A stretch of 32,000 bases of DNA from an uncultured archaeon (GTDB lineage: Archaea; Asgardarchaeota; Lokiarchaeia; Sigyniarchaeales; Promethearchaeaceae), in contig CAYRPF010000006.1 of NCBI GenBank assembly GCA_964426185.1, positions 1-32,000 on the forward strand, read 5' to 3'. The position numbers and the translations under genes are program-made. The notes under the pieces are model-generated. The model was not told the origin of the DNA. It saw only the letters and a list, made by a program, of their open reading frames with translations, and ran no database searches. Positions 3,412 through 30,136 of the stretch are shown in pieces; positions within the stretch are counted from its first letter, which is position 1, and each line of letters opens with the position of its first letter.

Positions 3412-3966
3412 ATGGAAAAAAAGAAGATATATAAAATCATTCTTGCAGGAGATGGAGGTGTAGGAAAATCCAGTTTATTAACCACAAAAATAACTGGACA
3501 ATTCAGTTACAGTTCCAAAATAACTGTTGGAATTGATTTTTCTTGTTTATTGGTTGAAAATAATCACCACCCCATTTCTTTTATAGTGTACGACTTAGGG
3601 GGACAAGAGAGATTTCATTTTCTTCACGATGCCTATTTGCGGGGAACCAAAGGCGCTTTAGTATTATATGACATTACTCGACCTAAAAGCTTTGAAAATA
3701 TTTCTCATTGGGTAGAATTATTAATGAAGGAAAATTCGCAAATTCCAATAATCTTGGTAGGATCAAAAATTGACCTTGGTCAACCAGAAGATTTGTTAAA
3801 TTATCAAAAATTATGGAAAAAAAGGGAAAATGTCTTCCCATATTATTCCAACATCCGAGCCCATAAGTTTATATCATCAAAAACCCAAATTGGAATTGAA
3901 GATTTATTCAATACTTTAAAAGAATTATTCATTACCCCACATGTTTACTTAATCGAGCAATGTTAA
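3412..3966 (+). CDS. Ras-superfamily small GTPase, Rab-like
   Basis: G1 GDGGVGKS, G2 ITVGIDF, G3 DLGGQ, G4 SKID, G5 SSK; RabF-like segments ERF, YLRG and VLYDIT. Confidence 0.95.
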   Translation: MEKKKIYKIILAGDGGVGKSSLLTTKITGQFSYSSKITVGIDFSCLLVENNHHPISFIVYDLGGQERFHFLHDAYLRGTKGALVLYDITRPKSFENISHWVELLMKENSQIPIILVGSKIDLGQPEDLLNYQKLWKKRENVFPYYSNIRAHKFISSKTQIGIEDLFNTLKELFITPHVYLIEQC

Positions 3967-3997: not shown

Positions 3998-5995
3998 TCA
4001 ATCTTCATCTACTAATTTATCGATAAGTGAATCATCTGCCAAAAACGGCATGGTTATATACCCTTTTCCTTGATTTCTTTTATTCCATTCACTTGCAGTT
4101 TCAATGGCATGAGGATTTCGCGCCCATGCACGACGAGCAATACCACAATGTACATCCCAGTCAAGTGCAAGATCTATAATCATATCTACTCGTTCACTTC
4201 CATCTAAAACCAGACCGAATCCACCATTAATCACTTTTCCAGTTCCAACTCCTCCTCCGTTAGAAAGAACGCACATGGTCATTCCTCGCGCAACATTTCC
4301 TGCCCAAGAATGATGTGCCATTTCTGACATGATATTGCTTCCATCTTTAATATTTGAAGTTTCTCGGAATGGGCTGTCCGTTCCTGATACATCGTGATGA
4401 TCCCGTCCAAGCATTACGGGACCAATTTTCCCTTCACGGACTAGTCGGTTGAATTCATGTGCAATTTTAACTCGACCAAGCCCATCTGCATATAATATTC
4501 GGGCTTGAGTCCCTACAACTAAACCATTCTTTTCTGCATCTCGAATCCACACATAATTATCACGATCTTGTCCACGTCGATTCGGATCGATACATTTCAT
4601 AGCAGTTTGATCAGTTTGGATCAAATCACTGTGCTTTCCACTTAAACACACCCAACGAAACGGGCCATAACCATAATCAAAGCAAATTGGCCCCATAATA
4701 TCTTCCACATATGATGGGTAAATAAAACCATTTCTGGGATCGTGATCTTTGGCAATTGAAGTTGCTCCTGCATCGTATACAGCTTTTAAAAAGGAATTTC
4801 CATAATCCCAAAATTTGGTGCCTCTTTGAGTCATAATTTGAATCAGTTCAAATTGGCGCTTTAATGATTCATCTACCAATTTTTTAAACTTTTGGCGCTC
4901 ATTTTTCAGCAATTCTCGACCTTCTTTAAAAGAAACACCTACTGGAGTATACCCTCCTTCATAAACAGCATGACAGCTGGTTTGATCAGAGGCTAATTCA
5001 ACTTTGATGTTGTTATCTACCACATATTGCCACAAATCAACCACATTTCCATGATAAGCAATCGAAAGAGATTCCCTTCGGGTTCTATATTCATCAACCC
5101 ATTGAAATATTTCTTCTAAATTATCTGAGATACGGTTTACCCATCCTTGTTCATGGCGTGTTTTAATCCGAGAAAGATCTACTTCTGCAGTAACACTTAT
5201 TGCTCTTGCGATATCTGCTGCCTTCGGTTGAGCACCACTCATTCCACCCAAACCTGAACTAATGTATAATACACCAGATAAATCTTCATTTTCCTTTCGA
5301 TTAAGATATAGTCGACCTGCATTAAGCAAGGTTATGTATGTCCCATGTACAATTCCTTGCGGGCCAATATACATCCATCCTCCTGCGGTCATTTGACCAT
5401 AATTAGCCAAACCTAAGGCTTGAGCGCGGTGAAAATCTGCAGAATTATCATACATACCAATCATTAATCCGTTGGAGAAAATTACTCTGGGAGCATTGCG
5501 TTTGCTGGGAAATAATCCTAAAGGATGACCAGACATTACAACCAATGTTTGATCTTCCTTTATAATTTCAAGATATTGTTTGATTAATCGATATTGCATC
5601 CAATTTTGGCATACTTGTCCTGATTCACCATAAGTAACTAATTCATATGGATAAAGAGCGATATCAAAATCTAAATTATTATCTATCATAACTTGGATTG
5701 CTCGAGCCTCAAGAATTCCCTTGTATTCATCAATTGGTTTGCCTACAATCGGACCATGAGGGCGATAACGATATGCATAAATCCGACCTCGTGTCTTTAA
5801 TTCATACAGAAATTCAGGTGCGAGTTTTTCATGCAATTCTTTAGGAACATAACGTAAAGCATTTTTCAATGCAATTTTAGTTTCTTTCGGAGTTAAATTA
5901 AATCCACGATTTGGAGCTCTTCGATATTGAGGATCAAATTCGGGATCTGGGGGGAGTTCTGCGGGTAATTGAATTTTCACAATGTTATTCGACAT
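3998..5995 (-). CDS. hutU: Urocanate hydratase, long (~665 aa) form
   Basis: YPYELVTYG, YGQMTAGGWMYIGPQGIVHGT, SSGLGGMSGAQPKA, SDQTSCH, GPFRWVCLSG and GRDHHDVSGTDSPFRET; adjacent to hutH. Confidence 0.97.
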   Translation of the reverse strand: MSNNIVKIQLPAELPPDPEFDPQYRRAPNRGFNLTPKETKIALKNALRYVPKELHEKLAPEFLYELKTRGRIYAYRYRPHGPIVGKPIDEYKGILEARAIQVMIDNNLDFDIALYPYELVTYGESGQVCQNWMQYRLIKQYLEIIKEDQTLVVMSGHPLGLFPSKRNAPRVIFSNGLMIGMYDNSADFHRAQALGLANYGQMTAGGWMYIGPQGIVHGTYITLLNAGRLYLNRKENEDLSGVLYISSGLGGMSGAQPKAADIARAISVTAEVDLSRIKTRHEQGWVNRISDNLEEIFQWVDEYRTRRESLSIAYHGNVVDLWQYVVDNNIKVELASDQTSCHAVYEGGYTPVGVSFKEGRELLKNERQKFKKLVDESLKRQFELIQIMTQRGTKFWDYGNSFLKAVYDAGATSIAKDHDPRNGFIYPSYVEDIMGPICFDYGYGPFRWVCLSGKHSDLIQTDQTAMKCIDPNRRGQDRDNYVWIRDAEKNGLVVGTQARILYADGLGRVKIAHEFNRLVREGKIGPVMLGRDHHDVSGTDSPFRETSNIKDGSNIMSEMAHHSWAGNVARGMTMCVLSNGGGVGTGKVINGGFGLVLDGSERVDMIIDLALDWDVHCGIARRAWARNPHAIETASEWNKRNQGKGYITMPFLADDSLIDKLVDED

Positions 5996-6107: not shown

Positions 6108-7646
6108 TTGATAAAGTTGGAAGAATTTCATTACGGAATGGATCAGATGGATGTTCCCATTGCACTGAAATTATGTTCGGGAGAAATGAAAGGAATTATC
6201 ACCGATGAAGTTAAAACGAAAGTTCAACAGTGCCATGCTGCAGTACAACGAATTGTTCAAGGGGAAAAGCCTGTATATTCAATAAATACTGGTTTTGGAT
6301 CTTTGTGCACCACTAAAATTTCGAAAGATGATGCAGGAAAATTGCAAGAAAACTTATTGAAATCTCATAGTGTTGGAGTAGGCGCTCCAATCGAGACCGA
6401 CATTGCAAAAATTATGCTTATTTTAAAGGTTCACGCTCTTTGTCAAGGTTATAGTGGAGTATCATTAACTTTGATTGAGCGAATACTCTGGCACATCGAT
6501 ATGAATTATATTCCTAAAGTTCTAGAGCAAGGTTCAGTTGGTGCTTCTGGAGATTTATGTCCTCTCGCGCATTTATTCCTTCCATTAATCGGACTGGGAG
6601 AAATTACTAAAGATGGTGGGAAAAACTATGTGCCAACCCATCAAATTCTAGAAGAAAATCAAATATCCCCTCTCTCATTAGGAGCAAAAGAAGGATTGGG
6701 TTTAATCAATGGGACTCAATTTATTGCAGCACATGCAATTAAAGTGGTCGAACGTTTGGAAAATTGCGTGGATCATGCTGATTTAATTGGTGCGTTAAGT
6801 TTAGAAGGATATCTTGGTTCGGTGGCACCTTTTGATCCCAGATTGCATAAAATACGACCTCATCCAGGTGCTCAAATTGTAGCGCGGCATCTTCGTGAAT
6901 TAACAGAAGGATCGGAATTTATCGAATATCATAAAGATTGTAATAGGGTGCAAGATCCCTATTCTTTTCGGTGTATGCCACAAATTCATGGAGCATGCCG
7001 AAATGCGCTTAATCATTTAAAGGAAGTTCTTATTCGGGAAATTAATTCGGTAACTGATAATCCAAATATTTTCCTTGAAGGAGAAAATGGAATAGCAATT
7101 TCTGGAGGGGGATTTCACGGAGAACCGCTAGCTTTACCATTAGATTATGTTGGTTTAGCTGCATCAGAATTGGGAAATATATCTGATCGACGCGTATATC
7201 TATTATTGGGTGAAAAAGGAGAATATGGACTTCCACTTTATCTAATTAAGGGTTCTGGTTTAAATTCTGGCTTTATGATTGCCCAATATGCTACAGCTGC
7301 ACTTGCCAGTGAAAACAAATCTTTATGTTTTCCAGCTAGTGCAGATTCCATTCCTACCAGTAATGGGGTTGAAGATTTAGTGTCTATGGGTTCAATTTCT
7401 GCACGGAAAACTCTCAGGATGATCGCAAATCTGGAGCAGATCCTAGGAATTGAGTTAGTTTGTGCATGTCAAGCAATGGATTTCAGACGACCCTTACAAA
7501 GTTCTGAAAAATTGGAATCTTGTCATTCTTATGTTCGAAAATATATCCCCTTTATTGAAAATGATGAAATTCTTTCACCACACATGCAGAAAGCAGCTGA
7601 AATTGTTCGCTCTAAGAAATTGCTTGAAATTTCACAAATCAATTAA
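6108..7646 (+). CDS. hutH: Histidine ammonia-lyase
   Basis: MIO-forming GSVGASGDL, plus YSINTGFG, KEGLGLINGTQ, QDPYSFRCMPQ, NSVTDNP and EDLVSMG. The TTG start is uncertain. Confidence 0.97.
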   Translation: MIKLEEFHYGMDQMDVPIALKLCSGEMKGIITDEVKTKVQQCHAAVQRIVQGEKPVYSINTGFGSLCTTKISKDDAGKLQENLLKSHSVGVGAPIETDIAKIMLILKVHALCQGYSGVSLTLIERILWHIDMNYIPKVLEQGSVGASGDLCPLAHLFLPLIGLGEITKDGGKNYVPTHQILEENQISPLSLGAKEGLGLINGTQFIAAHAIKVVERLENCVDHADLIGALSLEGYLGSVAPFDPRLHKIRPHPGAQIVARHLRELTEGSEFIEYHKDCNRVQDPYSFRCMPQIHGACRNALNHLKEVLIREINSVTDNPNIFLEGENGIAISGGGFHGEPLALPLDYVGLAASELGNISDRRVYLLLGEKGEYGLPLYLIKGSGLNSGFMIAQYATAALASENKSLCFPASADSIPTSNGVEDLVSMGSISARKTLRMIANLEQILGIELVCACQAMDFRRPLQSSEKLESCHSYVRKYIPFIENDEILSPHMQKAAEIVRSKKLLEISQIN

Positions 7647-7789: not shown

Positions 7790-9322
7790 ATGCCATTAGT
7801 TGAACTAGTTCCCAATTTTAGTGAAGGTCGGAATAAAGAAGTAATCGACCAAATACTATACGCCTTAAAATCTGCCGGGTCTGCTAAAGTACTCGATGCC
7901 CGCGCGGATCCTGATCATAACCGGCTTGTGGTCACAATGGTAGGTGAACCAGATGCTTGTTTCAATGCGGCTTTTGCAGGAATTAAAACCGCCTCCCAGT
8001 TAATCGATATGGATAAGCACACAGGAGAACATCCCCGAATTGGAGCAACAGATGTTGTCCCCTTTGTTCCGGTCTCAGGAATTACAATAGAGGAATGTGC
8101 TGAGCTTGCAAAGAAACTTGCGGAAAAAGTTTCCTCCGAGCTAGGGATTCCCACTTATCTATACGAAGCAGCAGCCACCCAACCTGACCGTGTAAATCTG
8201 GCAAATATTCGGAAAGGGCAATATGAAGGATTAAAAGAAGAAATTAAGACCAATCCCGATCGTAAACCGGATTTTGGGCCTTCAGAATTACCAAAAGCAG
8301 GTGCCACGGTCATAGGCGCCCGAGAATTCTTGATTGCATATAATATTTACTTAAATACTGACAACGTAGAGATTGCCAAACGTATTGGGGTGAATATTCG
8401 ACATAAAAATGGTGGTTTTCGCTATGTAAAATCGATGGGATTCGATACCAAACCTTACGTGCAAGTATCTATGAATTTAACAAATTACAGAGAAACGCCC
8501 ATGCATATGGTGGTTGAAACTGTTCGTCGTGAGGCTGCACGATATGGTGTGATGATTACCGAAACAGAAGTATATGGTATGATTCCAGTGGATGCATTAT
8601 TGGATTCCGCTGAATTCTATCTCCAACTAAATGATAAGTGGGAACGAAACCAAGTTATCGAGAAAAAATTAGAAGAAGTCTCACGAAATGAAAGTCAAGC
8701 TTTAATAAACTACACTGTACAAGACTTTATTAAAGAATTAGCTTCAGATTCTCCTGCACCAGGTGGTGGATCAGTTGCTTGCGTAGCAGGGGGTATGGGT
8801 GCTGCTCTTGGAGCAATGGTTTCCCGTTTAACTATCGGGAAAAAGGGATATGAAGAAGTATCATCCCTGTTCTCGGAAAAATTGAAAGACCTGGATGAAT
8901 TGCATCATAAATTGACCATGTTAATTGATAAAGATGCCAATGCTTTTAATGGAGTCATAAAGGCTTTTAAAATGCCGAAGGACACTGAAGAACAAAAAGC
9001 TGCGCGCTCTGCAAAAATACAAGAGGAATATAAAAATGCCGCTTTAGTTCCCTTAGAAACTGTGAAAACATGTAAAGCAGTATTAGATGTACTGTTCGAA
9101 ATCGGAATAAAAGGTAACAAGAATGCTCTTTCGGACATTGCGGTTGGTGCGATGAATACACTTACCGGTTTGAAATCAGCTGCATTAAATGTGGAGATTA
9201 ACCTACCAGCAATAAAAGATGAGGAATTTAAAACAAATGTTAAAAATGAACTTCTTTCTATAATAACAGGGTTGGATGAAAAAGTAAATTATTTAGTGGA
9301 AGAAGCCAGGAAAAATTTTTAG
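7790..9322 (+). CDS. ftcD: Bifunctional glutamate formiminotransferase / formiminotetrahydrofolate cyclodeaminase
   Basis: N-terminal LVELVPNFSEGR, DHNR, GEHPRIGATDVVPF and GAREFLIAYN; C-terminal cyclodeaminase ASDSPAPGGGS, GNKNALSD and ALNVEINL. Confidence 0.95.
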   Translation: MPLVELVPNFSEGRNKEVIDQILYALKSAGSAKVLDARADPDHNRLVVTMVGEPDACFNAAFAGIKTASQLIDMDKHTGEHPRIGATDVVPFVPVSGITIEECAELAKKLAEKVSSELGIPTYLYEAAATQPDRVNLANIRKGQYEGLKEEIKTNPDRKPDFGPSELPKAGATVIGAREFLIAYNIYLNTDNVEIAKRIGVNIRHKNGGFRYVKSMGFDTKPYVQVSMNLTNYRETPMHMVVETVRREAARYGVMITETEVYGMIPVDALLDSAEFYLQLNDKWERNQVIEKKLEEVSRNESQALINYTVQDFIKELASDSPAPGGGSVACVAGGMGAALGAMVSRLTIGKKGYEEVSSLFSEKLKDLDELHHKLTMLIDKDANAFNGVIKAFKMPKDTEEQKAARSAKIQEEYKNAALVPLETVKTCKAVLDVLFEIGIKGNKNALSDIAVGAMNTLTGLKSAALNVEINLPAIKDEEFKTNVKNELLSIITGLDEKVNYLVEEARKNF

Positions 9323-13838: not shown

Positions 13839-14987
13839 CTAAAATTCTAAGCTTGTTTGATCAATGAGTTTAATCATTAAAGGCGCTTCAGTATCCTCTT
13901 GGTGCAAAATAATTTTACTTAATGAAGCCAAAAATAACATTTCTTCGAATGTTTGAATATATTTGACTTTCTTCTCTAATATTTTAAGCGAATTATCTTG
14001 ATAAATCATATTTTTAAAATAATCCATTGAAACAGTGCGATTTGGTGGATTTTCCATTCGAATAATTTCAACTAATTGACGATGGCGGCGTTTTAAACGT
14101 TCCTCAATGGTTTCTTCACTTCCTGTAATATGCTTTAATATTTCTGCTGGTAATCGCCCCTTACCACGCTTTTTAACTTCTTTCTCGCGTTTTGCCATTT
14201 GCTGTTCTCGACGTATTCGAAGTTTTTCCCTTTTTTGCATTGTTTCAATAATTGCGCGGCGCATTGCTCCGAAGAGTTCTTCTGAAGTAGCAATTTTCCG
14301 GGCTTCTCGTAGTGGTTGAGCGATAGGTTTTGGAATTTGCCTACGAATCCGTTCCCGCATTTCAGCTTTCTGGATTTCTTCTTCTTGTTTAATAACTCCA
14401 GTAATTTTAGAATGGTATAATTGGGCTGAAGAGTAAATTGCCAAGCCGGAGATACGAAAATCGATTAATTCTTCTTCGACCATTTTCGAAACGAAATCTT
14501 CAATCAACGATGAAAGATCAAATTTAGTAAAATCCACTGTTTTCGCTAAGTCGGGGTCTAGGAGACTACGATAAGGTTCTTCCAGCCACCATTTCTTGAT
14601 TTGAGAGATTTTTTCTAATTCTTCCTCCATTACATCTTTCTCTTCTAAATCCTCACCAACAGAGATCACTTCTTTTATTTTTGGTTCTGCAGGAGTCCTT
14701 TTTTCTTTAGGTTTTTTAGTGGTTTTTTGTGATTTTCTCGTTTGCGATGTTGTTGTCTTTGATGGTTTAGCGATTTTTGCATTTGTTACCTCTAATGGTT
14801 TTTGTTTTGAGATTGTTGAAACTTTTGATTTCGTCGATTTTTTAGATTTGGTTAATTTTTTTTTAGATTTTGACACACTACTCTTTTTTTTGCTCGACTT
14901 TTTACGTGAGGTTCCTTTTCGAGCTGAGGATTTCTTTGAACTAGTCTTTTTATTTCTGGGTTTTTGAATTGTTTTTTCTGTTGTCAC
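13839..14987 (-). CDS. scpA: Kleisin ScpA with Lys/Ser-rich N-terminal extension
   Basis: N-kleisin segment FDLSSLIEDF...DFRISGLAIYSSAQLYHSK, middle SEELFGAMRRA and C-terminal winged helix TFEEMLFLASLSKIILHQ. GTG start after AGGAGG; lies between smc and scpB. Confidence 0.88.
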   Translation of the reverse strand: MTTEKTIQKPRNKKTSSKKSSARKGTSRKKSSKKKSSVSKSKKKLTKSKKSTKSKVSTISKQKPLEVTNAKIAKPSKTTTSQTRKSQKTTKKPKEKRTPAEPKIKEVISVGEDLEEKDVMEEELEKISQIKKWWLEEPYRSLLDPDLAKTVDFTKFDLSSLIEDFVSKMVEEELIDFRISGLAIYSSAQLYHSKITGVIKQEEEIQKAEMRERIRRQIPKPIAQPLREARKIATSEELFGAMRRAIIETMQKREKLRIRREQQMAKREKEVKKRGKGRLPAEILKHITGSEETIEERLKRRHRQLVEIIRMENPPNRTVSMDYFKNMIYQDNSLKILEKKVKYIQTFEEMLFLASLSKIILHQEDTEAPLMIKLIDQTSLEF

Positions 14988-15013: not shown

Positions 15014-18000
15014 TTAATTCTGATCGGGAGTATCTTTTACCAACTCCACATTCGTATCAAAATCCTCTCTTTCCTTTTCTTCTTCAAGATTAACTGTAAA
15101 AATATCGGTAATTCCGTCATTCATTGCAACCCCATAAATCCGATCTGCATTAGTGATATTTTCTTCTCGATGACTAATGACTAAAAATTGAGATTGTCTG
15201 GCATATTCTTTGATTACCATCGAAGTTCGATAAACATTTGGACCATCGAGAGCTGCATCTATTTCATCCATAATGTAAAATGGAGCGGGATAAAAGTTTT
15301 GGATTGCAAAAATAAAAGAAAGGGCAACCAATGTCTTTTCTCCGCCTGATAAAATGTCCAGCGATGAAATTTTCTTTCCTCTTGGTCTGGCTTCAATGGT
15401 TATTCCACCTTCAAAAGGATGGGCTGGATTTTCGAGAATCATTTTAGCGGAACCGCCTGGAGATAGTTTTTGAAACACCGAACTAAACACCCGATTAATT
15501 TCGTGATATGCCTTCATGAAATTCCGCGTTTTTTCCAACTCAATACGGTCAATAGAATCCAAAATAGCTTTACGCTCTCGTTGGAGAGTTTGCCGACGCA
15601 TATCAATTTCATCCCAGCGTTCTTTGACTTCATCGTATTCTTCAATGGATTTTAAGTTTACTGGCTCTAAGGCTTTCTTTTCAGTGTTAGCGGTTCCAAT
15701 TTTCTGATTTAATGTTTCTTCATTTAAATCATCTGTCACTGGTGGTAAGGTGCCGTAATCTTTTGATTTTTCAAAAAGTTCATCAATTTTTTCTTCTACT
15801 ACAATTTTACGAGTTTCTAATCCGTTGAATTTGGCATTATTTCGTGATAAATCCGCATTCAATTCACCTAGTTCATCTCGGAGCGATTTCTGTTTTTCCC
15901 AAGAAGCATTTTTTTGACCTTGAAGATCTGTCAATATTTCAATTTGTTTTAATCGCGATTCTTCAAGTTTTGTAATTTTATCGGTTATAGATTTAATTAA
16001 TTCTTGAAAATCGGCAATTTTATCTCCTAATTCACCCTCTTCGTCCTTAAGTTGTTCAATTTCGCCTTCCCGGGCCTTCATTTGAACTTGCTTATCCAAC
16101 TTCTTTTCCAAAGCCTTAATTTGATTGCTAATTTCTTTAGACTGTGCTCTTAATTCTTTTTCTTTTGATTCTAATGACTGTCGTGCAGTTTGATGTTCGG
16201 CAATGAGTTTATTTTTCTCTTCAATTTGACTTTCTAATTCATGAATTTGGTTCTCCAATTCTTCATTACTCTTAGTATTTTCAGCAATTTTCTCGGTAGA
16301 TTCGGTAATTTCTATTTCTAATGCTTCAATATCGGAAATTATTTTTTGAACATTTTGCAAATCCTTTATTCGACCGTTGACCTCACCCAGTTTATCCGAT
16401 TCTAAGTCAATTTGGGCTTGTAGATCGGTTCTCACATCATCAGCCTTAGCTCTTTTCTCCTTAACTTCGGAAATTTTGGCGAGAATTTCATCAATTTCTT
16501 TTTGTACTTTTTCACTTTGAGTAGATAGATCTTGAATATTTTGGTTTTTTGTCTCAATTTCTACTTGTAATTTCTGCTGTTCTTCAGTTGCATTATCAAT
16601 ATCGTCCAATAGTCGCTTAACATTACTTAAACTATTTAAATCGTCCACAATTTGTGCCAATTCTTCTGATTTCTCGTCAATCAGGCTCTGTAAGTCTTTT
16701 GAATCTTTCCAAAAATTTTCTGAAGATTGCTTCAATTCAGTTAACTTTTTGCTAATAGATTCAATTTCCTCTTTAATTTGACTCGCTTTGGTTGATTTTT
16801 CCTCAAATTCTTTTCTATTTGTTGAGATTTTAGATTCCAAATCATTAATTTTCTTTGTTAAGGCAGAGATTTGAGAGTTTGTTTGATTCAATTCTTGTTG
16901 TTTTTGCTCTAAATGGGCAGTAATTTTTGTAAATTGAACTGAAGCCTTAGAATATCCTTCTGCTTGAGCGGAGATAGCTGTATTGAGATCTTCCAAAGCA
17001 CGATAATGCTCAGAAGTATCTGCAACAGCCACAGCTTGAAGTGCTACCCTTATTGAATCGAATTTATCAGTAAAATCTTGAATAAAACCATCAAAATTCG
17101 CCGTGGATTCATTTAATGCTTCATCACTAGCTTCTTGAACCATTTCATTTAACTGAATTAAAGGTTGTTCTGCATTTTCAATCAACAATTTTAAAGTATT
17201 AACCGCAAAAGAGAGTTGTTCTTGAATTTCTCGGGGTTGATCAGGTGTCATTTCAGAAATTTCTTCAATCGACCGAAGCATATCGGTAACATCGAGCACA
17301 AATGCTTTAAAAACCTTGCTGGATTCATCAATGGCAACTTGGCTCACATTTTGAATGTCTGATTTAATATCGCCTGCAGATCGGTCAATATTCAGAATAA
17401 GATTAGTGAGATTATCCAGAACAGAGTTTAATTCTACCTGGGTTTCGTTATGTTCTGCTTCCTTTTTATCAATGGTTTCCTGCAGTTTTTCCCTTTCCTC
17501 TTTCATATGCTCTATTTTTTCACTGAAATTATCAAGTTGAGCTTGTAATTTAGTTTGTTCAGCGGATAGAGCGGCAATTTCTTTTTGTAGATTATCGTGA
17601 ATAATTTGAATATGTTGTTGCTGACGTTGGCTGGAATGAAGATCTGTTTCTGCTGTTTTAAGTTCTACCCCTATTCCAGTAAGTTTCTTTTCTAAGTCTC
17701 CTAATTCCCCTTCTAATGCACGCCTTTTTAATTCAAATGACTCTTGCTTGGTTTGACTGCGTTTTTGTTCCTCGTTGGCAGAGTTTAATTGAGATTTTAA
17801 ATCTTTGACTTGGTCACCAATTTTTTTTTCTTTAGATCTTAGGATTTTGATTTGATCTTCCACAGCTTGCCCTTTAGTTAATTTTTCGTATTCTTTTTGA
17901 AGAGTGTTCTTTTTTGATTCCAGATCTTCGATTCGTTTTTTGATTAAATTTATTTCTGCACCAGTTGAAGAGACTGCTGCTTGAATATCTGATTGAGATT

Positions 18001-19477
18001 TGGCAACCGTGTCTCTTTGTTTTTCTAATTTTAGAATTTCTTCATCTAATTGTTTTTGGAGGTTTTTTTGTTCAATAATAGATTGCTTAAGTTTGGTAAT
18101 TTGATCTTGAATAGCTTTTGCTTCGGTATTGGCTTGTTCCATGGCCTGTTCTATGCTTTCTGCATCTTTTTGTAGTTTTTGTAAATCTTTATCTAATTGA
18201 GATTTTCTTTTTTCGTTCTTTTTGATAGATTTCTCAAGAAGCTTAATTTCAGTAGTTAAAGCTTTACTGTCTTGTTTAATCTTAGAAATTTCTTTGTTTA
18301 TTTGAGCCTTTTCGGCGTTAATATCAGTGATGATTTGTTCTTCTTCTTTTTGTTTTACTTTATTTTCTTCAATAAGTCCTGCATTTTCATCAAGTGCTTG
18401 TTGTACTCCATCAATTTCTGTCTTAGTGCGTGCTATCAAATCATCAAAAGTTTGACCTTCTTCTAATTTCTCTTGAAGTTCTTCAAGTTTGATTATATTT
18501 TGTTGAAGCCGTTTTAAATTTTCTTCCGTGGCCTTGAGAGTTGCTTCTTTGGCAGAAAGTTCTGCTTTTTGAGCGGTAATTTCTTCATCTAATTTTGTTT
18601 TTTCAGTTTCTTGAACTTCAATATCTTCTTCTAATCCCTTTAAAAATAACGCTTCTGCTTCAATTTTATCTTTCTGTCGTTGAATTCTGTTTTTTAAGTC
18701 TTCAATTACCAATTGGGTAGATTCGATTTCTGCATTAATATCATCCTCTTCCAAGCGCATTTTATGAATTTTTAGTGCGATTAACTGAGCGTTGAATAAA
18801 TTTACTTTATTATCTAGTTCTTTCCAACGAAGAGCATCATTTTTTTCTTTTTCAACTTTTTTCAATTGAGTAGAGACTTCTTTAAATATCGCCTCAAATT
18901 GACCTAAATCTTTATCTGCTTTCTCTAGCTCTTTCAATGTCTTATCTTTCATTTCGTCATATTTACTTAATCCAATCAACATTTCAATAAATTCACGTCT
19001 TGCATTGGAACTCATATGAGTTAATTCTACGATTTTTCCTTGAAGAACAAATTGATTAGAGCCATCAGGATCAATATTTGCTTGAGCAAGAGCATTTAAA
19101 ATGGCCGTTCGGGTACTTGCCTTGCCTTGGATACGGTAACCACTAGTTCCACTGCGTTTTATCCATCGCGACACTTTGAATTCATCAGAATCGCTGGGAA
19201 AAACCCGATCTTTATTATCAAAAACAATTTCTACTTCTGCACGAGTTGCTGGTTTAACTTTTTTAGATCCTGCGAAGATTAAATCAGTTAATTTTGTGGC
19301 GCGCATGGTAGACTTTGCCAATCGACCGAGAGCAAAACATAAACCATCAATTACATTAGATTTTCCATTTCCATTCGGTCCCACAATGCATGTAAACCCT
19401 TTAGCAAGATTGACTGATACAGTGCGATTTCCGAAAGATTTGAACCCAGTCATCACGACACGTTTTATATAGGTCAT
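15014..19477 (-). CDS. smc: Chromosome segregation ATPase Smc, elongated, with non-canonical central domain
   Basis: GFKSF, Walker A GPNGNGKSN, Q-loop FVLQGKI, PVNLKSIEEY, signature LSGGEK, Walker B/D-loop YIMDEIDAALD and H-loop ISH; long coiled coils; operon with scpA and scpB. Confidence 0.95.
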   Translation of the reverse strand: MTYIKRVVMTGFKSFGNRTVSVNLAKGFTCIVGPNGNGKSNVIDGLCFALGRLAKSTMRATKLTDLIFAGSKKVKPATRAEVEIVFDNKDRVFPSDSDEFKVSRWIKRSGTSGYRIQGKASTRTAILNALAQANIDPDGSNQFVLQGKIVELTHMSSNARREFIEMLIGLSKYDEMKDKTLKELEKADKDLGQFEAIFKEVSTQLKKVEKEKNDALRWKELDNKVNLFNAQLIALKIHKMRLEEDDINAEIESTQLVIEDLKNRIQRQKDKIEAEALFLKGLEEDIEVQETEKTKLDEEITAQKAELSAKEATLKATEENLKRLQQNIIKLEELQEKLEEGQTFDDLIARTKTEIDGVQQALDENAGLIEENKVKQKEEEQIITDINAEKAQINKEISKIKQDSKALTTEIKLLEKSIKKNEKRKSQLDKDLQKLQKDAESIEQAMEQANTEAKAIQDQITKLKQSIIEQKNLQKQLDEEILKLEKQRDTVAKSQSDIQAAVSSTGAEINLIKKRIEDLESKKNTLQKEYEKLTKGQAVEDQIKILRSKEKKIGDQVKDLKSQLNSANEEQKRSQTKQESFELKRRALEGELGDLEKKLTGIGVELKTAETDLHSSQRQQQHIQIIHDNLQKEIAALSAEQTKLQAQLDNFSEKIEHMKEEREKLQETIDKKEAEHNETQVELNSVLDNLTNLILNIDRSAGDIKSDIQNVSQVAIDESSKVFKAFVLDVTDMLRSIEEISEMTPDQPREIQEQLSFAVNTLKLLIENAEQPLIQLNEMVQEASDEALNESTANFDGFIQDFTDKFDSIRVALQAVAVADTSEHYRALEDLNTAISAQAEGYSKASVQFTKITAHLEQKQQELNQTNSQISALTKKINDLESKISTNRKEFEEKSTKASQIKEEIESISKKLTELKQSSENFWKDSKDLQSLIDEKSEELAQIVDDLNSLSNVKRLLDDIDNATEEQQKLQVEIETKNQNIQDLSTQSEKVQKEIDEILAKISEVKEKRAKADDVRTDLQAQIDLESDKLGEVNGRIKDLQNVQKIISDIEALEIEITESTEKIAENTKSNEELENQIHELESQIEEKNKLIAEHQTARQSLESKEKELRAQSKEISNQIKALEKKLDKQVQMKAREGEIEQLKDEEGELGDKIADFQELIKSITDKITKLEESRLKQIEILTDLQGQKNASWEKQKSLRDELGELNADLSRNNAKFNGLETRKIVVEEKIDELFEKSKDYGTLPPVTDDLNEETLNQKIGTANTEKKALEPVNLKSIEEYDEVKERWDEIDMRRQTLQRERKAILDSIDRIELEKTRNFMKAYHEINRVFSSVFQKLSPGGSAKMILENPAHPFEGGITIEARPRGKKISSLDILSGGEKTLVALSFIFAIQNFYPAPFYIMDEIDAALDGPNVYRTSMVIKEYARQSQFLVISHREENITNADRIYGVAMNDGITDIFTVNLEEEKEREDFDTNVELVKDTPDQN

Positions 19478-19489
19478 TTGAAATATTAG

Positions 19490-19568
19490 TCTCCTAAATA
19501 CCTAACATATGAAATCCTTAAAGTATCAATCTCCTAAATACCTAACATATGAAATCCTTAAAGTATCA
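19490..19568. repeat. Exact 39-bp direct repeat, two copies with 40-bp period, in the smc / gelsolin-gene divergent intergenic region
   Basis: tctcctaaatacctaacatatgaaatccttaaagtatca at 19490-19528 and 19530-19568. Confidence 0.95.
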
Positions 19569-19592: not shown

Positions 19593-22337
19593 ATGAGCAA
19601 TTCTTCCAAAATTCTTCTTCCTTATATACTCAAACCAGAAGGAAAGATAGAACCACTTGATATAGAAGATATTCCTTCAAAATTAATTTCTGTTAATATT
19701 TTGTATTTTTATCACTATGAAAAGAAAAGATTATATATTTGGATTGGTAAAAATGCAGGAAAGAAATTAAAGCAGACAATACCTACTGCAGAAGAAATAA
19801 TTTTAAAAAAAAATCCAGATATCACAATTATTCGCCATTTTACGGTAGATGAAGGAAGCGAAACACATGATTTTTGGCAAGATACCGCTCTTAATCCCGA
19901 AAATATTAGAAAAATTCAGCAAAAATGGTCTGAATTCCGATTAGATCAATATGCTTTGTTAGATAAACTTCGAATCAATATGACATCTGCTAAAAATACT
20001 GGTGATTTTGAAAACGCAATAAATTATATTGAACAAATACTTAAAGTTGCAGAAGAAATTTATGATTGGGATTTGATCGATGAATTCACACAATTACGTG
20101 ATCAAATCCTTCGAGTAAAAGATTTGAGATCTCGAAAAGATGAAATCAAGCGCGAAATTCCCCATAAAATTGCCAAGCTTGATAAATTAATGGCAGAAAA
20201 TGAGGTTATAAAAGCCCATGATTTAGCCGTTGAAATTCAAGAATATTACTCAATTTTATTTAATGAACCCATTCCCCGTAAATTTCAAAGATCATTAGAC
20301 TCAGAAAAAATGTTGTACGATGAATATATTAGAATAAAGAAAGATATTAATGATTTACAAGAGCGGTTTAATGAGTTCTTACCGGAAAGAAATTTAAGAA
20401 CTCTCTATCGCATTGGTAAAAAACTCGTCCAATTAAATGAAAAATTTGACGATATTACGATTGATCAGTCAATGATGGAACAAATTTCCTTAATTGAGGC
20501 ACAATACAAAGAATGGGAAAAATCAGAAAGAGAATATAGAAATAATATAACCACCTTAACATCAGCATACCAACGAGCAAAAAGTAACTATGAATTTGAT
20601 GAGGCTCAGCAACATTTGGAGAAAATAATAGAATTAATTCAAACTTCAGATCATAAAAGTGAATTAGAACAATGGGAAACTGAAATATCGAATTTGAAAG
20701 AATTAAAAAAACAATGGGAGCTGCAAAAAGAAGAAGCTAAAAAGAAAAAGTTAGAAAATCGTGATAAAATTAAGCAAATGCAAGCAGAAATTGAACAACA
20801 ATTACATAATAGAAATTTCCCAGAAACCTTTGCTTCCGTGGAAAAACTCTATCTTTTTGCCTCACAAACTCATGACGAAGAAATTGAAAAAGAAATTGCC
20901 AATTATCGGAAAGAAATTAATGAAAAAATAACAAACTTAAAGTTGTTAGATATATTATTGAAAAAAATTTCAGAATGGGAAGAATCTTTCCCTGAATTGA
21001 AAAAAACCAAGCAGTATGATACAATTTTAAGCGATCTCAATATATTCCTTTCTGATGAAGCCATAAATTATTCACTCGAACATAAAGCCAGATTATCAGA
21101 AATCAAATCGTCCATCGAAGAATTGAAGGAAAAATACTCGAAGAATGTAGCGCTCTATAATCGCTTATCTACAGAAATCAAAGAGAATGAAAATAAAGAG
21201 CAATGGATGGCTTTAACCCGTAATGCTAAACGCATTCAAGAAATCCTTCCTGAAATTGATAAGGAAAATGAGCACATAAAGTTTCAAGAAATAGAAAATT
21301 TAGCCAATCAAAAAATTAAGGAGAAAGAGAAGAAGAAAGAAGAAGAATTGGCTCAATTATTAAATAAAGCGAAAGAAATCGAAAATATCATCCAGAGTGA
21401 AAAAAAAATACTCCCATTGGTGGAGGATTTATCATTAGAAGACATCTTACCGAATTTATCTACCGATGTCAACGAAATGCTTACTCAAATTGAAAGCGTA
21501 TTAGATAAGCAGCGCGTTGAGGTTAAGGATGATATGGAAAGTTCAATGCTGTTAACCAGTGCCTCGGGCGAAACTATGGAGATCACTGCAAAAATACAAG
21601 TTTCAATGGAGTCTGCTTCACTTGATAAGGAAACTTTGGAGATCTCCCCGTTTACGAAATTTAAGGCAAGTTCTGTGTTGGAAAATCCATTCCACGACGC
21701 AATTTCTGAGGTGATTATTGAAGATATTATTCCCTATAACTTTGAAATTTCTGATATAAACGTGGAGGGGGGCGATAATTTCGAAAAACCCGAAGAACAA
21801 TTACACAAAGACGGCTTCGTCTTAAAATGGAAATTAAATAACATTCCCGCCCAAAACTCGGTTAAAATTAATTATGAATTACGTAAAAGAGTCTCACGAA
21901 CTATTCTAATTCCCTTGGAAACGCAATTAAAGGTAATAAAAACCCATACGAGTATCAAAGATTATTCTCCAGAAGGTTTGTACGATGTAACCATGTTTTT
22001 CAAAAACAAATTTGCAAAGTCAGTCATCGGCGTTGTTATTGAAGATATAATTCCAACCTTTTATCATTTCCAAATTAAACTTCCTAAGGATGCACTACCT
22101 GCTTCTCAAGTAGAACAACCAATTGGAGCACTTATTAAGTGGAATTATCACGAAATTCTTGAAAATAAGGAATTGAAACATCAATATCGTCTGTTAAATT
22201 TGGCTCAATTTGAAAATTTAAAGATTTTAGTGGATAAATTGACACGTGAAGCTTATAATACACTTGAAAGAGGCGATATCGATAAATCTTTGGCAACTTA
22301 TCAAAAAATTGTCAAAAAATTGCGAAAGTTTACCTAA
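19593..22337 (+). CDS. Gelsolin-like domain protein with helical-repeat rod and two C-terminal Ig-like beta-sandwich repeats
   Basis: N-terminal LYIWIGKNA...TVDEGSETHDFW (gelsolin/villin repeat signature); recurring helical units; two V(I/V)IEDIIP...(L/I)KW...Y repeats 107 aa apart. Confidence 0.75.
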   Translation: MSNSSKILLPYILKPEGKIEPLDIEDIPSKLISVNILYFYHYEKKRLYIWIGKNAGKKLKQTIPTAEEIILKKNPDITIIRHFTVDEGSETHDFWQDTALNPENIRKIQQKWSEFRLDQYALLDKLRINMTSAKNTGDFENAINYIEQILKVAEEIYDWDLIDEFTQLRDQILRVKDLRSRKDEIKREIPHKIAKLDKLMAENEVIKAHDLAVEIQEYYSILFNEPIPRKFQRSLDSEKMLYDEYIRIKKDINDLQERFNEFLPERNLRTLYRIGKKLVQLNEKFDDITIDQSMMEQISLIEAQYKEWEKSEREYRNNITTLTSAYQRAKSNYEFDEAQQHLEKIIELIQTSDHKSELEQWETEISNLKELKKQWELQKEEAKKKKLENRDKIKQMQAEIEQQLHNRNFPETFASVEKLYLFASQTHDEEIEKEIANYRKEINEKITNLKLLDILLKKISEWEESFPELKKTKQYDTILSDLNIFLSDEAINYSLEHKARLSEIKSSIEELKEKYSKNVALYNRLSTEIKENENKEQWMALTRNAKRIQEILPEIDKENEHIKFQEIENLANQKIKEKEKKKEEELAQLLNKAKEIENIIQSEKKILPLVEDLSLEDILPNLSTDVNEMLTQIESVLDKQRVEVKDDMESSMLLTSASGETMEITAKIQVSMESASLDKETLEISPFTKFKASSVLENPFHDAISEVIIEDIIPYNFEISDINVEGGDNFEKPEEQLHKDGFVLKWKLNNIPAQNSVKINYELRKRVSRTILIPLETQLKVIKTHTSIKDYSPEGLYDVTMFFKNKFAKSVIGVVIEDIIPTFYHFQIKLPKDALPASQVEQPIGALIKWNYHEILENKELKHQYRLLNLAQFENLKILVDKLTREAYNTLERGDIDKSLATYQKIVKKLRKFT

Positions 22338-22359: not shown

Positions 22360-22574
22360 ATGTCAAACATCACTTAGTATACTCCTTTTTTTGGAGTGAT
22401 TATAGTTAATTGGGATGCTTTCAGCGATGTCGATGAAGATAAAAGAACCTTGTTGAAAATCTACTGGCGATTTTTACAGAATATTCAGAAAACTTGATGA
22501 ATTTTCAAGGAAATGTCGAAATATTTGATAATTTTAAGAGAATTCTTTTATCTATGGATCTCGATATGATATAA
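22360..22574 (+). pseudogene. Possible decayed longin-like gene remnant
   Basis: ATG at 22360, in-frame TAG at 22375, then a frame change near 22441-22449 into LVENLLAIFTEYSENLMNFQGNVEIFDNFKRIL, which resembles longin C-terminal helices. Confidence 0.35.
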
Positions 22575-22605: not shown

Positions 22606-22911
22606 TTGAATAATGGGGTAGAAGTTGTGAATCAGAAATCGAACAAGCCAGAAGAAGAAAAATCTCAAGAAGAATCAACTATATCTGAGAAAAGTCAAAA
22701 AAAAAAAAAGAATGTACATCAAAACACCTCAGAAGAAAAAATTCTTAAAAAATATGAAAAAGAGCTTAAAGAACAAAAAAAATATCTGGTTTCTATTGAA
22801 ATAACAATTGTCGTTCAAGAAAAACAACAAGATAGGCTATCCCAAGCAATCCAGCCAATAATTGACAATTATAAATCATTTTTTAAAGCATATATGTGCA
22901 GACTGCCATAA
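22606..22911 (+). CDS. Hypothetical Lys/Glu-rich protein, possibly frameshifted from a downstream Zn-finger segment
   Basis: 101-aa ORF; the +1 frame continues as HICADCHK...ICAE* to 23011. Confidence 0.45.
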   Translation: MNNGVEVVNQKSNKPEEEKSQEESTISEKSQKKKKNVHQNTSEEKILKKYEKELKEQKKYLVSIEITIVVQEKQQDRLSQAIQPIIDNYKSFFKAYMCRLP

Positions 22912-27778: not shown

Positions 27779-30136
27779 TTATCGTTCGTGTGTGATATCC
27801 CATATAATTTTATTTAATTCTGCAAAATCTCCAATAATTTGATCCTTTTTTACATTCCATCCTAAAATCTGATAGATTTTGGTCTGCAAATGCCTGGTTT
27901 TCAATTCTTTTAGAATGGTTAGGTTATAATAATTCTCTTTTTTCAAACTGGAGTTATTTCTCTTTAATAATGATTCGATTTCCAAATTTGCAATTGATTT
28001 TACTTTCCTTTCCATATTTTGGGAGTGCATTACCAGTTTTTGATGTAATGGGTTATGCAAATCAAAATCTGGGAGAAAGAAGGTAAATGGGAGTTTATGA
28101 ATATCGCGGGCGGATTTTTCAATTCTAACGGCTTTAGTGAGATCGGGAGCATTTAAAAAGCCCATTACATAGTATGCTTCATCTATGGAACTAAGTTTCA
28201 AAAAATAGTTGGTGGTATCTACAATAACATGTGGATCAAGAAGCAGTGCGGCTTTTACGTAGGATCCACTTCGCTGATACACCACTTTAATTGGACTGAG
28301 ATGTCGAGGATTGGTTAGATTATTATGGAAATTAATTCTTTCCCATAAAGAGCGTATTGCTGCACCTGATTTATGATTTTCTTGAAAAATTTGTTCTAAT
28401 ATTTGATAATAATGCCATCCCTTTGAGTTTTTCTCTTGGATTTTTCTGTATCTATGGGAATCACCATCAAGTTCAATTGGAATAAAAGCATAATCAAAAT
28501 GAGTAAAAGCGAAAGGAATCAAGTGCTTACTTTTTAAAATTGGGAAAATATACCTCGATTCCACTAAGATTTTGCCGAAATGATATATATCTGGATATTT
28601 TTTCAATTGACTTTCCAAATCAAAATCCCAATTAGCTTTTGATTCTTTATTTTGAGGAATTATAACCAATTTTCCAGATGATTCAAATTGGGGCAAAATC
28701 GAAAGCAACGAGCGAGGAAAAATGTCCGCTCCTCGATGGGAGAGACGATAGTACGAATTATTTCCATGAGGTAGGAGAGATTGCAGGTTTTTCTTTTCTT
28801 CCTTTTTAATCAACTTTTGAACTTGCAATCGACTATTTTGTCTCTTTATTCTGGAAGGAATCAAAAAATATCGCTCCTTTAAGTGGAAATTCCAGTTATT
28901 TCCTTCTTTATGAGCACTAAATTCAAGATTTTCCAGCTCCAGATTATTTAATTCACTTTCAGATCGAATCAATCTGGGAGAATATCTAGCAAAAATGCAA
29001 ATATGGGGAACAGAGAATATATCGAGGTCGAAAGACCAAATAGATATGCCGTCAAACTCAGGAAATGTTCGTGTTATTGCGTGATTGCTTCCAGTGATAA
29101 ACGCATTACTTACTACCAAAGCAATAACACCATTTCTAACCAAAAATTCACGGCTTTGAAAAAAAAATAAGGCGCTAATTTCAATATTAGGAACTTGATG
29201 AGGCTTCGGTTTAAATCCTAACTTAGATGCTAATTTTTTCACCTTTTCCTTATATTTCAGATGTTGCATGCTTTTAATGGTAATCCAAGCTGGATTTCCA
29301 ATAATCAAATCAAATTTGTGAGTTATTTTATCTACAGAGAAATATTTATTTTCCCAAAAAAGCACACTTTCATGATAAATTTGAATTTTTTGCCAAGGAA
29401 AATCGATTTTTGAAAGATGCAAGGCCAAAATGATATTCATTCTCGCCAAAGCACAAGCAAGTGGGTTAATATCAAATCCAAAAACATTTTTCGCTGCTTT
29501 TTTTTTTTCATCCAGTGAATGTTGAGTATTAAAAATTATAATTTTAAGAATTTCGATTAGAAAAACTCCAGTACCGCAAGCGGGATCCATAATCTTCTGG
29601 CCAAATTCATAAGTCTCTACAACCATTTTCGAAGCTAAGTCCGGTGGAGTGTAAAACTCACCCAAGTTGTGGCGAACCTTAGGAGATACTAGTTTTTGAT
29701 AAAACAAATGAAAAAAATCTCCAAAAATTGGATAAGATTTATGGTTTTGCTCCGTTGAATTTAGTTTCAATTGATCCGAAATAGGCGTGTTGATATGAAA
29801 GTCGGAGAAAAATTCGGTAAACCATCCAAAATAAGAGGAACCGCTAAGCTCAGGAAAAACCCGGTTAAAATCCAACGATGATTCTAGATTACAAAAGATT
29901 TCTTTGATTATAATCACGCAATATAGATGCTTGAAAAATAGATCTTCGGTGAGATTTTGTGCACTATAGAAGATTAGGAAGGATTTATTCCATATTTCAT
30001 AATTTTCCTCAAATTTTCTTCTAAAATGTGGATCTATTTTTTTCTTTTCGCTTAACTCATAGAAAAATTGGTTAAATACTTTAGAATCCTGCCCGAAATT
30101 TTCATCTAAAAATTTATCGTTGAGAAAAAGTTCCAC
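27779..30136 (-). CDS. N6-adenine-type DNA methyltransferase (gamma class, Eco57I/type IIG-like) with long C-terminal target-recognition region
   Basis: LGEFYTP (motif X), IMDPACGTGVF (motif I), GFDINP and FDLIIGNPAW (motif IV variant). Confidence 0.88.
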   Translation of the reverse strand: MELFLNDKFLDENFGQDSKVFNQFFYELSEKKKIDPHFRRKFEENYEIWNKSFLIFYSAQNLTEDLFFKHLYCVIIIKEIFCNLESSLDFNRVFPELSGSSYFGWFTEFFSDFHINTPISDQLKLNSTEQNHKSYPIFGDFFHLFYQKLVSPKVRHNLGEFYTPPDLASKMVVETYEFGQKIMDPACGTGVFLIEILKIIIFNTQHSLDEKKKAAKNVFGFDINPLACALARMNIILALHLSKIDFPWQKIQIYHESVLFWENKYFSVDKITHKFDLIIGNPAWITIKSMQHLKYKEKVKKLASKLGFKPKPHQVPNIEISALFFFQSREFLVRNGVIALVVSNAFITGSNHAITRTFPEFDGISIWSFDLDIFSVPHICIFARYSPRLIRSESELNNLELENLEFSAHKEGNNWNFHLKERYFLIPSRIKRQNSRLQVQKLIKKEEKKNLQSLLPHGNNSYYRLSHRGADIFPRSLLSILPQFESSGKLVIIPQNKESKANWDFDLESQLKKYPDIYHFGKILVESRYIFPILKSKHLIPFAFTHFDYAFIPIELDGDSHRYRKIQEKNSKGWHYYQILEQIFQENHKSGAAIRSLWERINFHNNLTNPRHLSPIKVVYQRSGSYVKAALLLDPHVIVDTTNYFLKLSSIDEAYYVMGFLNAPDLTKAVRIEKSARDIHKLPFTFFLPDFDLHNPLHQKLVMHSQNMERKVKSIANLEIESLLKRNNSSLKKENYYNLTILKELKTRHLQTKIYQILGWNVKKDQIIGDFAELNKIIWDITHER

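Follow-up and report, generated by a model that had tools for sequence, protein, structure and literature searches.

Asgard archaea rely on a Lokiactin cytoskeleton to crawl and to change shape (PMC13716822). Three architectures have been defined for their gelsolins (Akil et al. 2020, PMC7444086); in one of these, 1DGelX, a lone gelsolin domain precedes an uncharacterised domain X that is predicted to be a coiled coil. The 1DGelX protein of Thorarchaeota (Thor) binds rabbit actin with a Kd of 7.7 µM and displays calcium-independent nucleation and severing, and both it and Thor ProGel gave bundling in total internal reflection fluorescence (TIRF) assays (PMC7444086). In Lokiarchaeal genomes, two 1DGelX proteins have been reported for MK-D1 and three for GC14_75 (PMC9433394). 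Here we describe P0001, a protein of 914 amino acids (aa) encoded by a gene at 19593-22337 (+) in a 32,000-nucleotide stretch of DNA from an uncultured Lokiarchaeal archaeon (positions 1 to 32,000 of contig CAYRPF010000006.1, hereafter the window). By architecture, P0001 belongs to the 1DGelX class because it consists of one gelsolin domain and a non-gelsolin extension, and it is a new, much extended variant within that class; a literature search found no description of its repeat rod or its tail extension. We propose with moderate confidence that P0001 is a cytoplasmic, modular actin regulator composed of a putative actin-binding head, a spacer rod and a docking tail.

The P0001 gene is one uninterrupted open reading frame (ORF), and its product is predicted to be cytoplasmic, with neither a signal peptide nor a membrane segment (maximum 19-residue hydropathy, 1.17). 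A word-indexed search returned three relatives, the closest of which was 914 aa long and 57% identical and came from a Lokiarchaeota metagenome-assembled genome; P0003, the orthologue of this length and identity, aligned with P0001 without any change in length. An exhaustive HMMER search gave 179 relatives at E ≤ 1e-3. Searches of Pfam and NCBIfam with the single P0001 sequence yielded nothing beyond sub-threshold TPR matches, and a phmmer search of the PDB gave no meaningful match (IpaD, E 0.3). Local phmmer mapping divided P0001 into three parts: an N module (aa 1-360), also found as stand-alone proteins of ∼350 aa; a poorly conserved middle (aa 361-494); and a C module (aa 495-914), present in proteins of 314 to 1417 aa. 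Following alignment of 60 N modules (A2) and 74 C modules (A3), both modules were folded, so that the models span aa 1-360 (pLDDT 94.8, pTM 0.78) and aa 495-914 (pLDDT 94.9, pTM 0.89). Overall, the results confirmed the gelsolin head, helical rod and β repeats that a preliminary description, made from the letters of this stretch, had recognised at 19593-22337, and they supported its interpretation in part.

The gelsolin-homology domain occupies aa 7-99 (19611-19889, +). In the model, aa 8-98 make up an alpha/beta domain with a central β-sheet between a long and a short helix, as in the gelsolin/cofilin fold, and the best 50 matches of this model in a Foldseek search of the PDB were all gelsolin-family domains. 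Although a Pfam search with P0001 alone gave no match to a gelsolin family, a head-only profile (A4) matched adseverin (9e-6), villin (4e-5), ProGel (2.9e-4, end to end) and Loki 2DGel (8.9e-4). Further, the WxG signature (W50, G52) is retained in 60 homologues, in which W50 is invariant and G52 is conserved in at least 90%. Fold, profile matches and signature together substantiate the gelsolin-like domain previously placed at about aa 5-100. In the alignment with adseverin, N35 lies opposite an Asp, and K/L at aa 58-59 lie opposite a Glu run; this Asp (after strand B) and Glu (after the start of the WxG helix) we take to be the type-2 calcium ligand positions. The acidic type-2 ligands of calcium-regulated gelsolins (G1 or 2DGel type) are absent from the P0001 head, and because the corresponding positions hold N35 and K58/L59, the head is predicted to act without calcium. 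The same genome encodes a second N-module paralogue (gelsolin plus helical region) of 282 aa near the end of another contig (G000, contig C50:651-1259, −; locus L011; E 3.9e-56 to the N-module profile).

The rod that follows (aa 102-595; 19896-21377, +) consists of seven units of ∼65 aa, each with a long helix, a turn and a short helix. From aa 102 onward, long (34-43 aa) and short (15-19 aa) helices alternate in the N model, and the C model opens with the same long-short-long pattern at aa 496-595. Turn motifs at about aa 136, 203, 266, 333, 406, 473 and 535 delimit seven units of 62-73 aa, in agreement with the earlier estimate of about seven helical units of 65-75 aa, and the chain closes with an eighth hairpin at about aa 893. 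From the models, which cover units 1-4 and 7, we read the units, which match MIT/TPR-like bundles, as consecutive three-helix bundles linked through continuous helices. A BLASTP comparison of P0001 with itself detected no internal repeats, and profile comparison and shuffle tests were needed to show them: hhalign matched aa 103-179 with aa 502-578 (probability 91%, E 1e-6), and in phmmer searches N-module units cross-matched C-module units of other proteins. By profile comparison, the rod units are true repeats. Homologues differ in rod length, as P0004 and P0005 lack long rod stretches and lengths within the family span about 640 to 1417 aa, which fits a role as a spacer that would change its length in whole units. 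In genus g8 of the same order, where 28 of 28 genomes gave a match, a GelX gene of ∼350 aa usually has directly behind it a gene of ∼385 aa encoding rod helical units only, without the β-sandwich tail (for example, G117:C14:7078-9141), indicating that the rod also exists as a separate protein. Genus g5 encodes GelX-plus-longer-rod proteins of ∼540-567 aa.

The tail begins with a small alpha/beta element (aa 597-645; 21381-21527, +), its most conserved linear stretch, in which P608, V610, E611, S614, L622, S623, D625 and R641 occupy invariant alignment columns and which is modelled as a strand (609-614) and two helices (615-618 and 626-640). An all-β region (aa 647-869) then comprises two homologous sandwiches, the first at about aa 647-774 (21531-21914, +; boundary approximate), with VIIEDIIP at 707 and LKW at 744, and the second at about aa 778-869 (21924-22199, +), with VVIEDIIP at 814 and IKW at 848. 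The chain ends in a closing helical hairpin with a TPR-like motif (aa 870-913; 22200-22334, +; helices 870-892 and 896-913), to which TPR_6 gave a sub-threshold match at 892-909. Local alignment of the two sandwiches scored 71 against a shuffle mean of 27 (z 8.5), and this result and the model uphold the reported pair of β-rich repeats that share VxIEDIIP and xKW, 107 aa apart, and precede a final helical unit. The P0001 tail itself matched no Pfam family at threshold. Its nearest ESM Atlas clusters are DUF11 proteins, with TM scores of 0.20-0.33 for the shape match depending on the query, and DUF11 was found below threshold in 6 of 74 tail relatives (best E 0.0014) and at 31.6 bits, against a cut-off of 24.6, in P0115. 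We call the tail sandwiches DUF11-like Ig-type domains, with membership in DUF11 unproven. DUF11 repeats typically occur in secreted or surface proteins.

We surveyed the distribution of the two modules in sampled genomes of the phylum. The C-module profile (about aa 495-914; E ≤ 1e-10) matched in 104 of 301 genomes, strongly in the archaeon's own order. A form of ∼520-600 aa occurs in families f7 (26/28), f16 (10/11), f24 (20/21) and f29 (11/11), and the same search did not find the module in f9 (0/76) or f14 (0/19); some weak matches in f2 cover the helical unit only. Named members of the C-module family are from Sigynarchaeota, the taxonomic labels among cluster names being limited to Promethearchaeota and Sigynarchaeota, and the genome under study carries one copy of the tail. 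At E ≤ 1e-8, the N-module profile matched in 5 of 6 genomes of f1 and 57 of 69 genomes of f2, which belong to the own order, and in 1 of 225 genomes elsewhere, the single match lying in family f18 (1/5 genomes). Other heads found on the same tail are vWA domains plus zinc ribbons or RING-like fingers. Judged by these profile matches, the tail is an Asgard-wide module joined to various heads or to none. The relatives P0065, P0068, P0069, P0072 and P0074 (about 1090-1120 aa) carry the tail behind vWA and zinc-ribbon/RING/PHD-like fingers and have no gelsolin head. At four loci of Lokiarchaeales (L032, on G279:C211, L033, L034 and L037), a tandem paralogue of 643-696 aa that has rod and tail but no head lies next after the fused gene.

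Regulators and effectors of Asgard small GTPases can rarely be assigned from gene order (PMC10933270). Around the tail gene, all ORFs at 40 further loci were profile-scanned, and 46 loci with a tail gene were counted. A homologous gene for a longin-TPR-longin protein (535-693 aa) lies within 300 bp of the tail gene at 18 of the 46 loci, in the own order and f24, and at 1.1 kb in a Sigynarchaeum-type locus. The gelsolin head is fused to the tail at 10 of the 46 loci, a separate GelX gene lies 31 or 127 bp upstream of the tail gene at two, and a separate gelsolin-domain gene lies 2.8-3.7 kb away at four loci of f24. The ∼680-aa downstream genes of relatives had been considered as P0001 paralogues, which BLASTP ruled out. 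The middle of the partner is an LGN/Pins-like TPR region, and its C-terminal domain gave sub-threshold matches to the Fuz/Mon1 and Intu/Ccz1 longin families and to TRAPP Bet5. Its N-terminal domain gave no PDB or Pfam match and has a conserved WD...GP motif, resembling the GP motif that GAP longins of eukaryotes and one class of Asgard longins are reported to have (PMC12290439). Two partner-type genes follow the tandem paralogue at L032, and a stand-alone longin-like gene of ∼140 aa lies upstream at L033 and L034.

Small Ras/Arf/Rag-like GTPase genes are directly adjacent at four loci (L004, L025, L026 and L048), which is suggestive. The L004 GTPase carries a domain homologous to the C-terminal domain of the partner (E 9e-30), and the N terminus of the L026 GTPase has a similar GP-containing sequence. 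A co-fold was also run on a short pair that occurs naturally in a genome of the same genus, a 535-aa partner and a 437-aa tail protein, with an alignment for each. The pair scored 0.57 (runs 0.57, 0.29 and 0.62), whereas the best of three controls scored 0.00; the runs share at least 52% of contacts, with partner pLDDT at or above 77, and the verdict was weak support. In calibration, 58 of 80 solved complexes reached the mark, as did 2 of 110 mismatched pairs; passes at 0.60 or under came from only 7 of the 80 complexes and from both passing mismatches, counts that are only rough as our own alignments were used. Since the weak pass comes together with conserved adjacency as a prior, we consider binding between tail and partner in relatives modestly more likely than before.

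In the same-genus genome, the order is the P0001 orthologue, the 693-aa partner, a histidine kinase, a 77-aa ORF, a ∼379-aa ORF and a methyltransferase. The window has the same gene order, and the gap between gene and kinase is only 787 bp. A tblastn search with the partner from L001 revealed in this gap a relic of the 3′ end of the partner gene (22443-22574, +; 43 codons and a stop, with stops in front); the match covers aa 660-689 of the query, 30 aa at 57% identity (E 4e-6). The remainder of the ∼2-kb gene is gone. No full-length copy was found elsewhere in this 92%-complete assembly. In three further independent assemblies, the protein is identical and the gap again measures about 787 bp, so the deletion is real and not a mis-assembly: the partner gene has been deleted in this genome. 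Within the gap, a 101-aa Lys/Glu/Gln-rich low-complexity ORF without a Pfam match (22606-22911, +) is a putative gene at most.

We propose that the head of P0001 would bind Lokiactin where ProGel and gelsolin G1 bind actin, acting without calcium, and that the tail is a docking module, which in relatives most likely binds the neighbouring longin-TPR-longin protein. That protein may serve a small GTPase as regulator or effector, such that the family would put an actin-capping, -severing or -nucleating head at a defined site and may couple actin to GTPase-type machinery. P0001, having no partner, might work untethered, use another docking target or be on its way to loss. Consistent with this proposal, the layout put forward earlier, an actin-binding head on a spacer with Ig appendages, is the best supported reading as a layout, with actin binding a prediction from the head. 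Several observations weigh against it. The head-plus-X module at E ≤ 1e-8 is almost confined to the own order, and homology of the X region to Thor domain X is unproven, so the activities of the Thor protein may not transfer. The gelsolin fold has non-actin roles too, as in Sec23/24. The partner is deleted here, yet the tail is intact and conserved, and in other Asgard families the many tail proteins of ∼520 aa lack a partner gene in their vicinity. A GTPase gene lies within 4 kb of the tail gene at 8 of the 46 loci, which is not clearly above chance and is not taken as support because small GTPases are so common in Asgard genomes. Finally, a weak co-fold pass is wrong in more cases than not, barring pairs that were already probable before the test, and the pair involved a paralogous short tail protein of a related genome, not P0001.

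An unlikely alternative is that P0001 cross-links or bundles actin, dimerising via rod or tail to place two heads on a long spacer in a manner like that of spectrin or alpha-actinin, to which it would be unrelated. The long repeat rod of three-helix bundles joined via continuous helices recalls spacer rods, and the bundling by Thor ProGel and 1DGelX is in keeping with such a function; however, the units are 65 aa long and TPR/MIT-like, not 106-aa spectrin repeats, and Pfam detected neither CH nor spectrin domains in P0001, which accordingly does not combine a CH head with spectrin repeats. Moreover, the tail is conserved with non-actin heads (vWA plus zinc ribbon), which points to docking over mere dimerisation. 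Comparably tentative is a more specific form of the docking proposal, in which the tail, the longin-TPR-longin protein encoded beside it and an Arf/Rag-like small GTPase would make up a docking platform switched by the GTPase, to which gene fusion in Lokiarchaeales would have added an actin-severing or -nucleating gelsolin head. Slightly less probable again is a scaffold of a longin/GTPase system unrelated to actin, in which the gelsolin fold was re-used for protein-protein interaction, as in Sec23/24. We regard a Sec23/24-like coat or adaptor, the solenoid with "ears" of the preliminary description, as highly improbable, as a Pfam search found no vWA trunk or zinc finger in P0001, its domain order is reversed relative to Sec23/24, no Sec23/24 β-barrel is among the tail matches listed, and comparison of the tail with the mu-homology domain (AP mu, delta-COP), a two-subdomain β-sandwich, gave scores within the range of a common arrangement. 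The least credible alternative, a cytoskeleton-chromosome link with the divergent Smc-ScpAB genes, draws on a head-to-head arrangement kept in the 57%-identical same-genus orthologue, but only the window and the same-genus L001 had an adjacent smc among the 46 loci, and the more distant full-length orthologues L004, L024 and L025 have unrelated upstream genes; as the adjacency is confined to the genus, the suggested link is unsupported.

The smc gene (15014-19477, −) is divergent from the P0001 gene across a 115-bp intergenic region, most of which is filled by a perfect tandem duplication of 40 bp × 2 (19490-19568; 100% matches, score 158). This duplication is probably recent because it contains no mismatch, and it may affect either promoter. 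Downstream of smc lie a 382-aa ORF without a Pfam match (13839-14987, −), presumably scpA by its position, and then scpB. A 184-aa Ras/Rab-like small GTPase (3412-3966, +; Pfam Ras 3.9e-34) resembles the GTPases encoded near tail genes in relatives (E 4e-17), yet it was treated as unrelated to the system because it lies 15.6 kb away beside histidine-utilisation genes, namely urocanase (3998-5995, −), a histidine ammonia-lyase-type gene (6108-7646, +) and formiminotransferase-cyclodeaminase (7790-9322, +). On the other side, a 785-aa N6-adenine methyltransferase of Eco57I/MmeI type (27779-30136, −) has a syntenic homologue of 811 aa in the same-genus genome.

The gelsolin-headed tail family may bear on the spatial control of Lokiactin. 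The gelsolin head is physically tied to a conserved tail, and the tail gene retains its longin/TPR neighbour across Asgard lineages, which provides concrete proteins for asking whether actin regulation joined longin/GTPase machinery before eukaryotes. A docking platform, if true, would be an archaeal forerunner of the eukaryotic logic that runs from small GTPase to actin effector, and this partner-less genome would be its natural uncoupled variant. For the locus itself, the domain map is firm, the reading of the smc adjacency has been corrected and there is evidence for loss of the partner gene.

Compared with known systems, P0001 is most like 1DGelX, with which it shares a single N-terminal domain of gelsolin/cofilin fold followed by a non-gelsolin helical extension, and its predicted calcium independence matches the calcium-independent nucleation and severing measured for the Thor protein. 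Thor 1DGelX is far smaller, running close to actin on gels (PMC7444086), whereas the 914 aa of P0001 include seven three-helix repeats and a double β-sandwich tail. In contrast to Thorarchaeota ProGel (PDB 7c2f), which is a gelsolin domain alone, and to gelsolin G1-type domains, the P0001 head leads an 800-aa extension and has N and K/L at the type-2 calcium ligand positions. Sec23/Sec24 of COPII and the archaeal ArnAB "Sec23/24 core motif" (PDB 8s05) also combine a gelsolin fold, a helical domain and a β-sandwich, and paralogues in the P0001 family have vWA and zinc-ribbon domains; P0001 does not have the Sec23/Sec24 chain of zinc finger, vWA trunk, β-barrel, helical domain and C-terminal gelsolin domain, and in its vWA/finger-headed relatives the kinds of domain seen in ArnAB and the Sec23/24 trunk are arranged otherwise. 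DUF11 (PF01345)/CARDB-like prokaryotic β-sandwich repeats resemble the tail through the nearest Atlas clusters and the sub-threshold matches in relatives, but the P0001 sandwiches are predicted to be cytoplasmic, number only two, are flanked by helices and fall below every Pfam threshold. The nearest analogues of the partner are the eukaryotic longin GTPase regulators (Mon1-Ccz1/Fuzzy-Inturned, TRAPP Bet5 and FLCN/SMCR8-type GAP longins), from which it differs in that its two longin-like domains flank a TPR solenoid within one chain.
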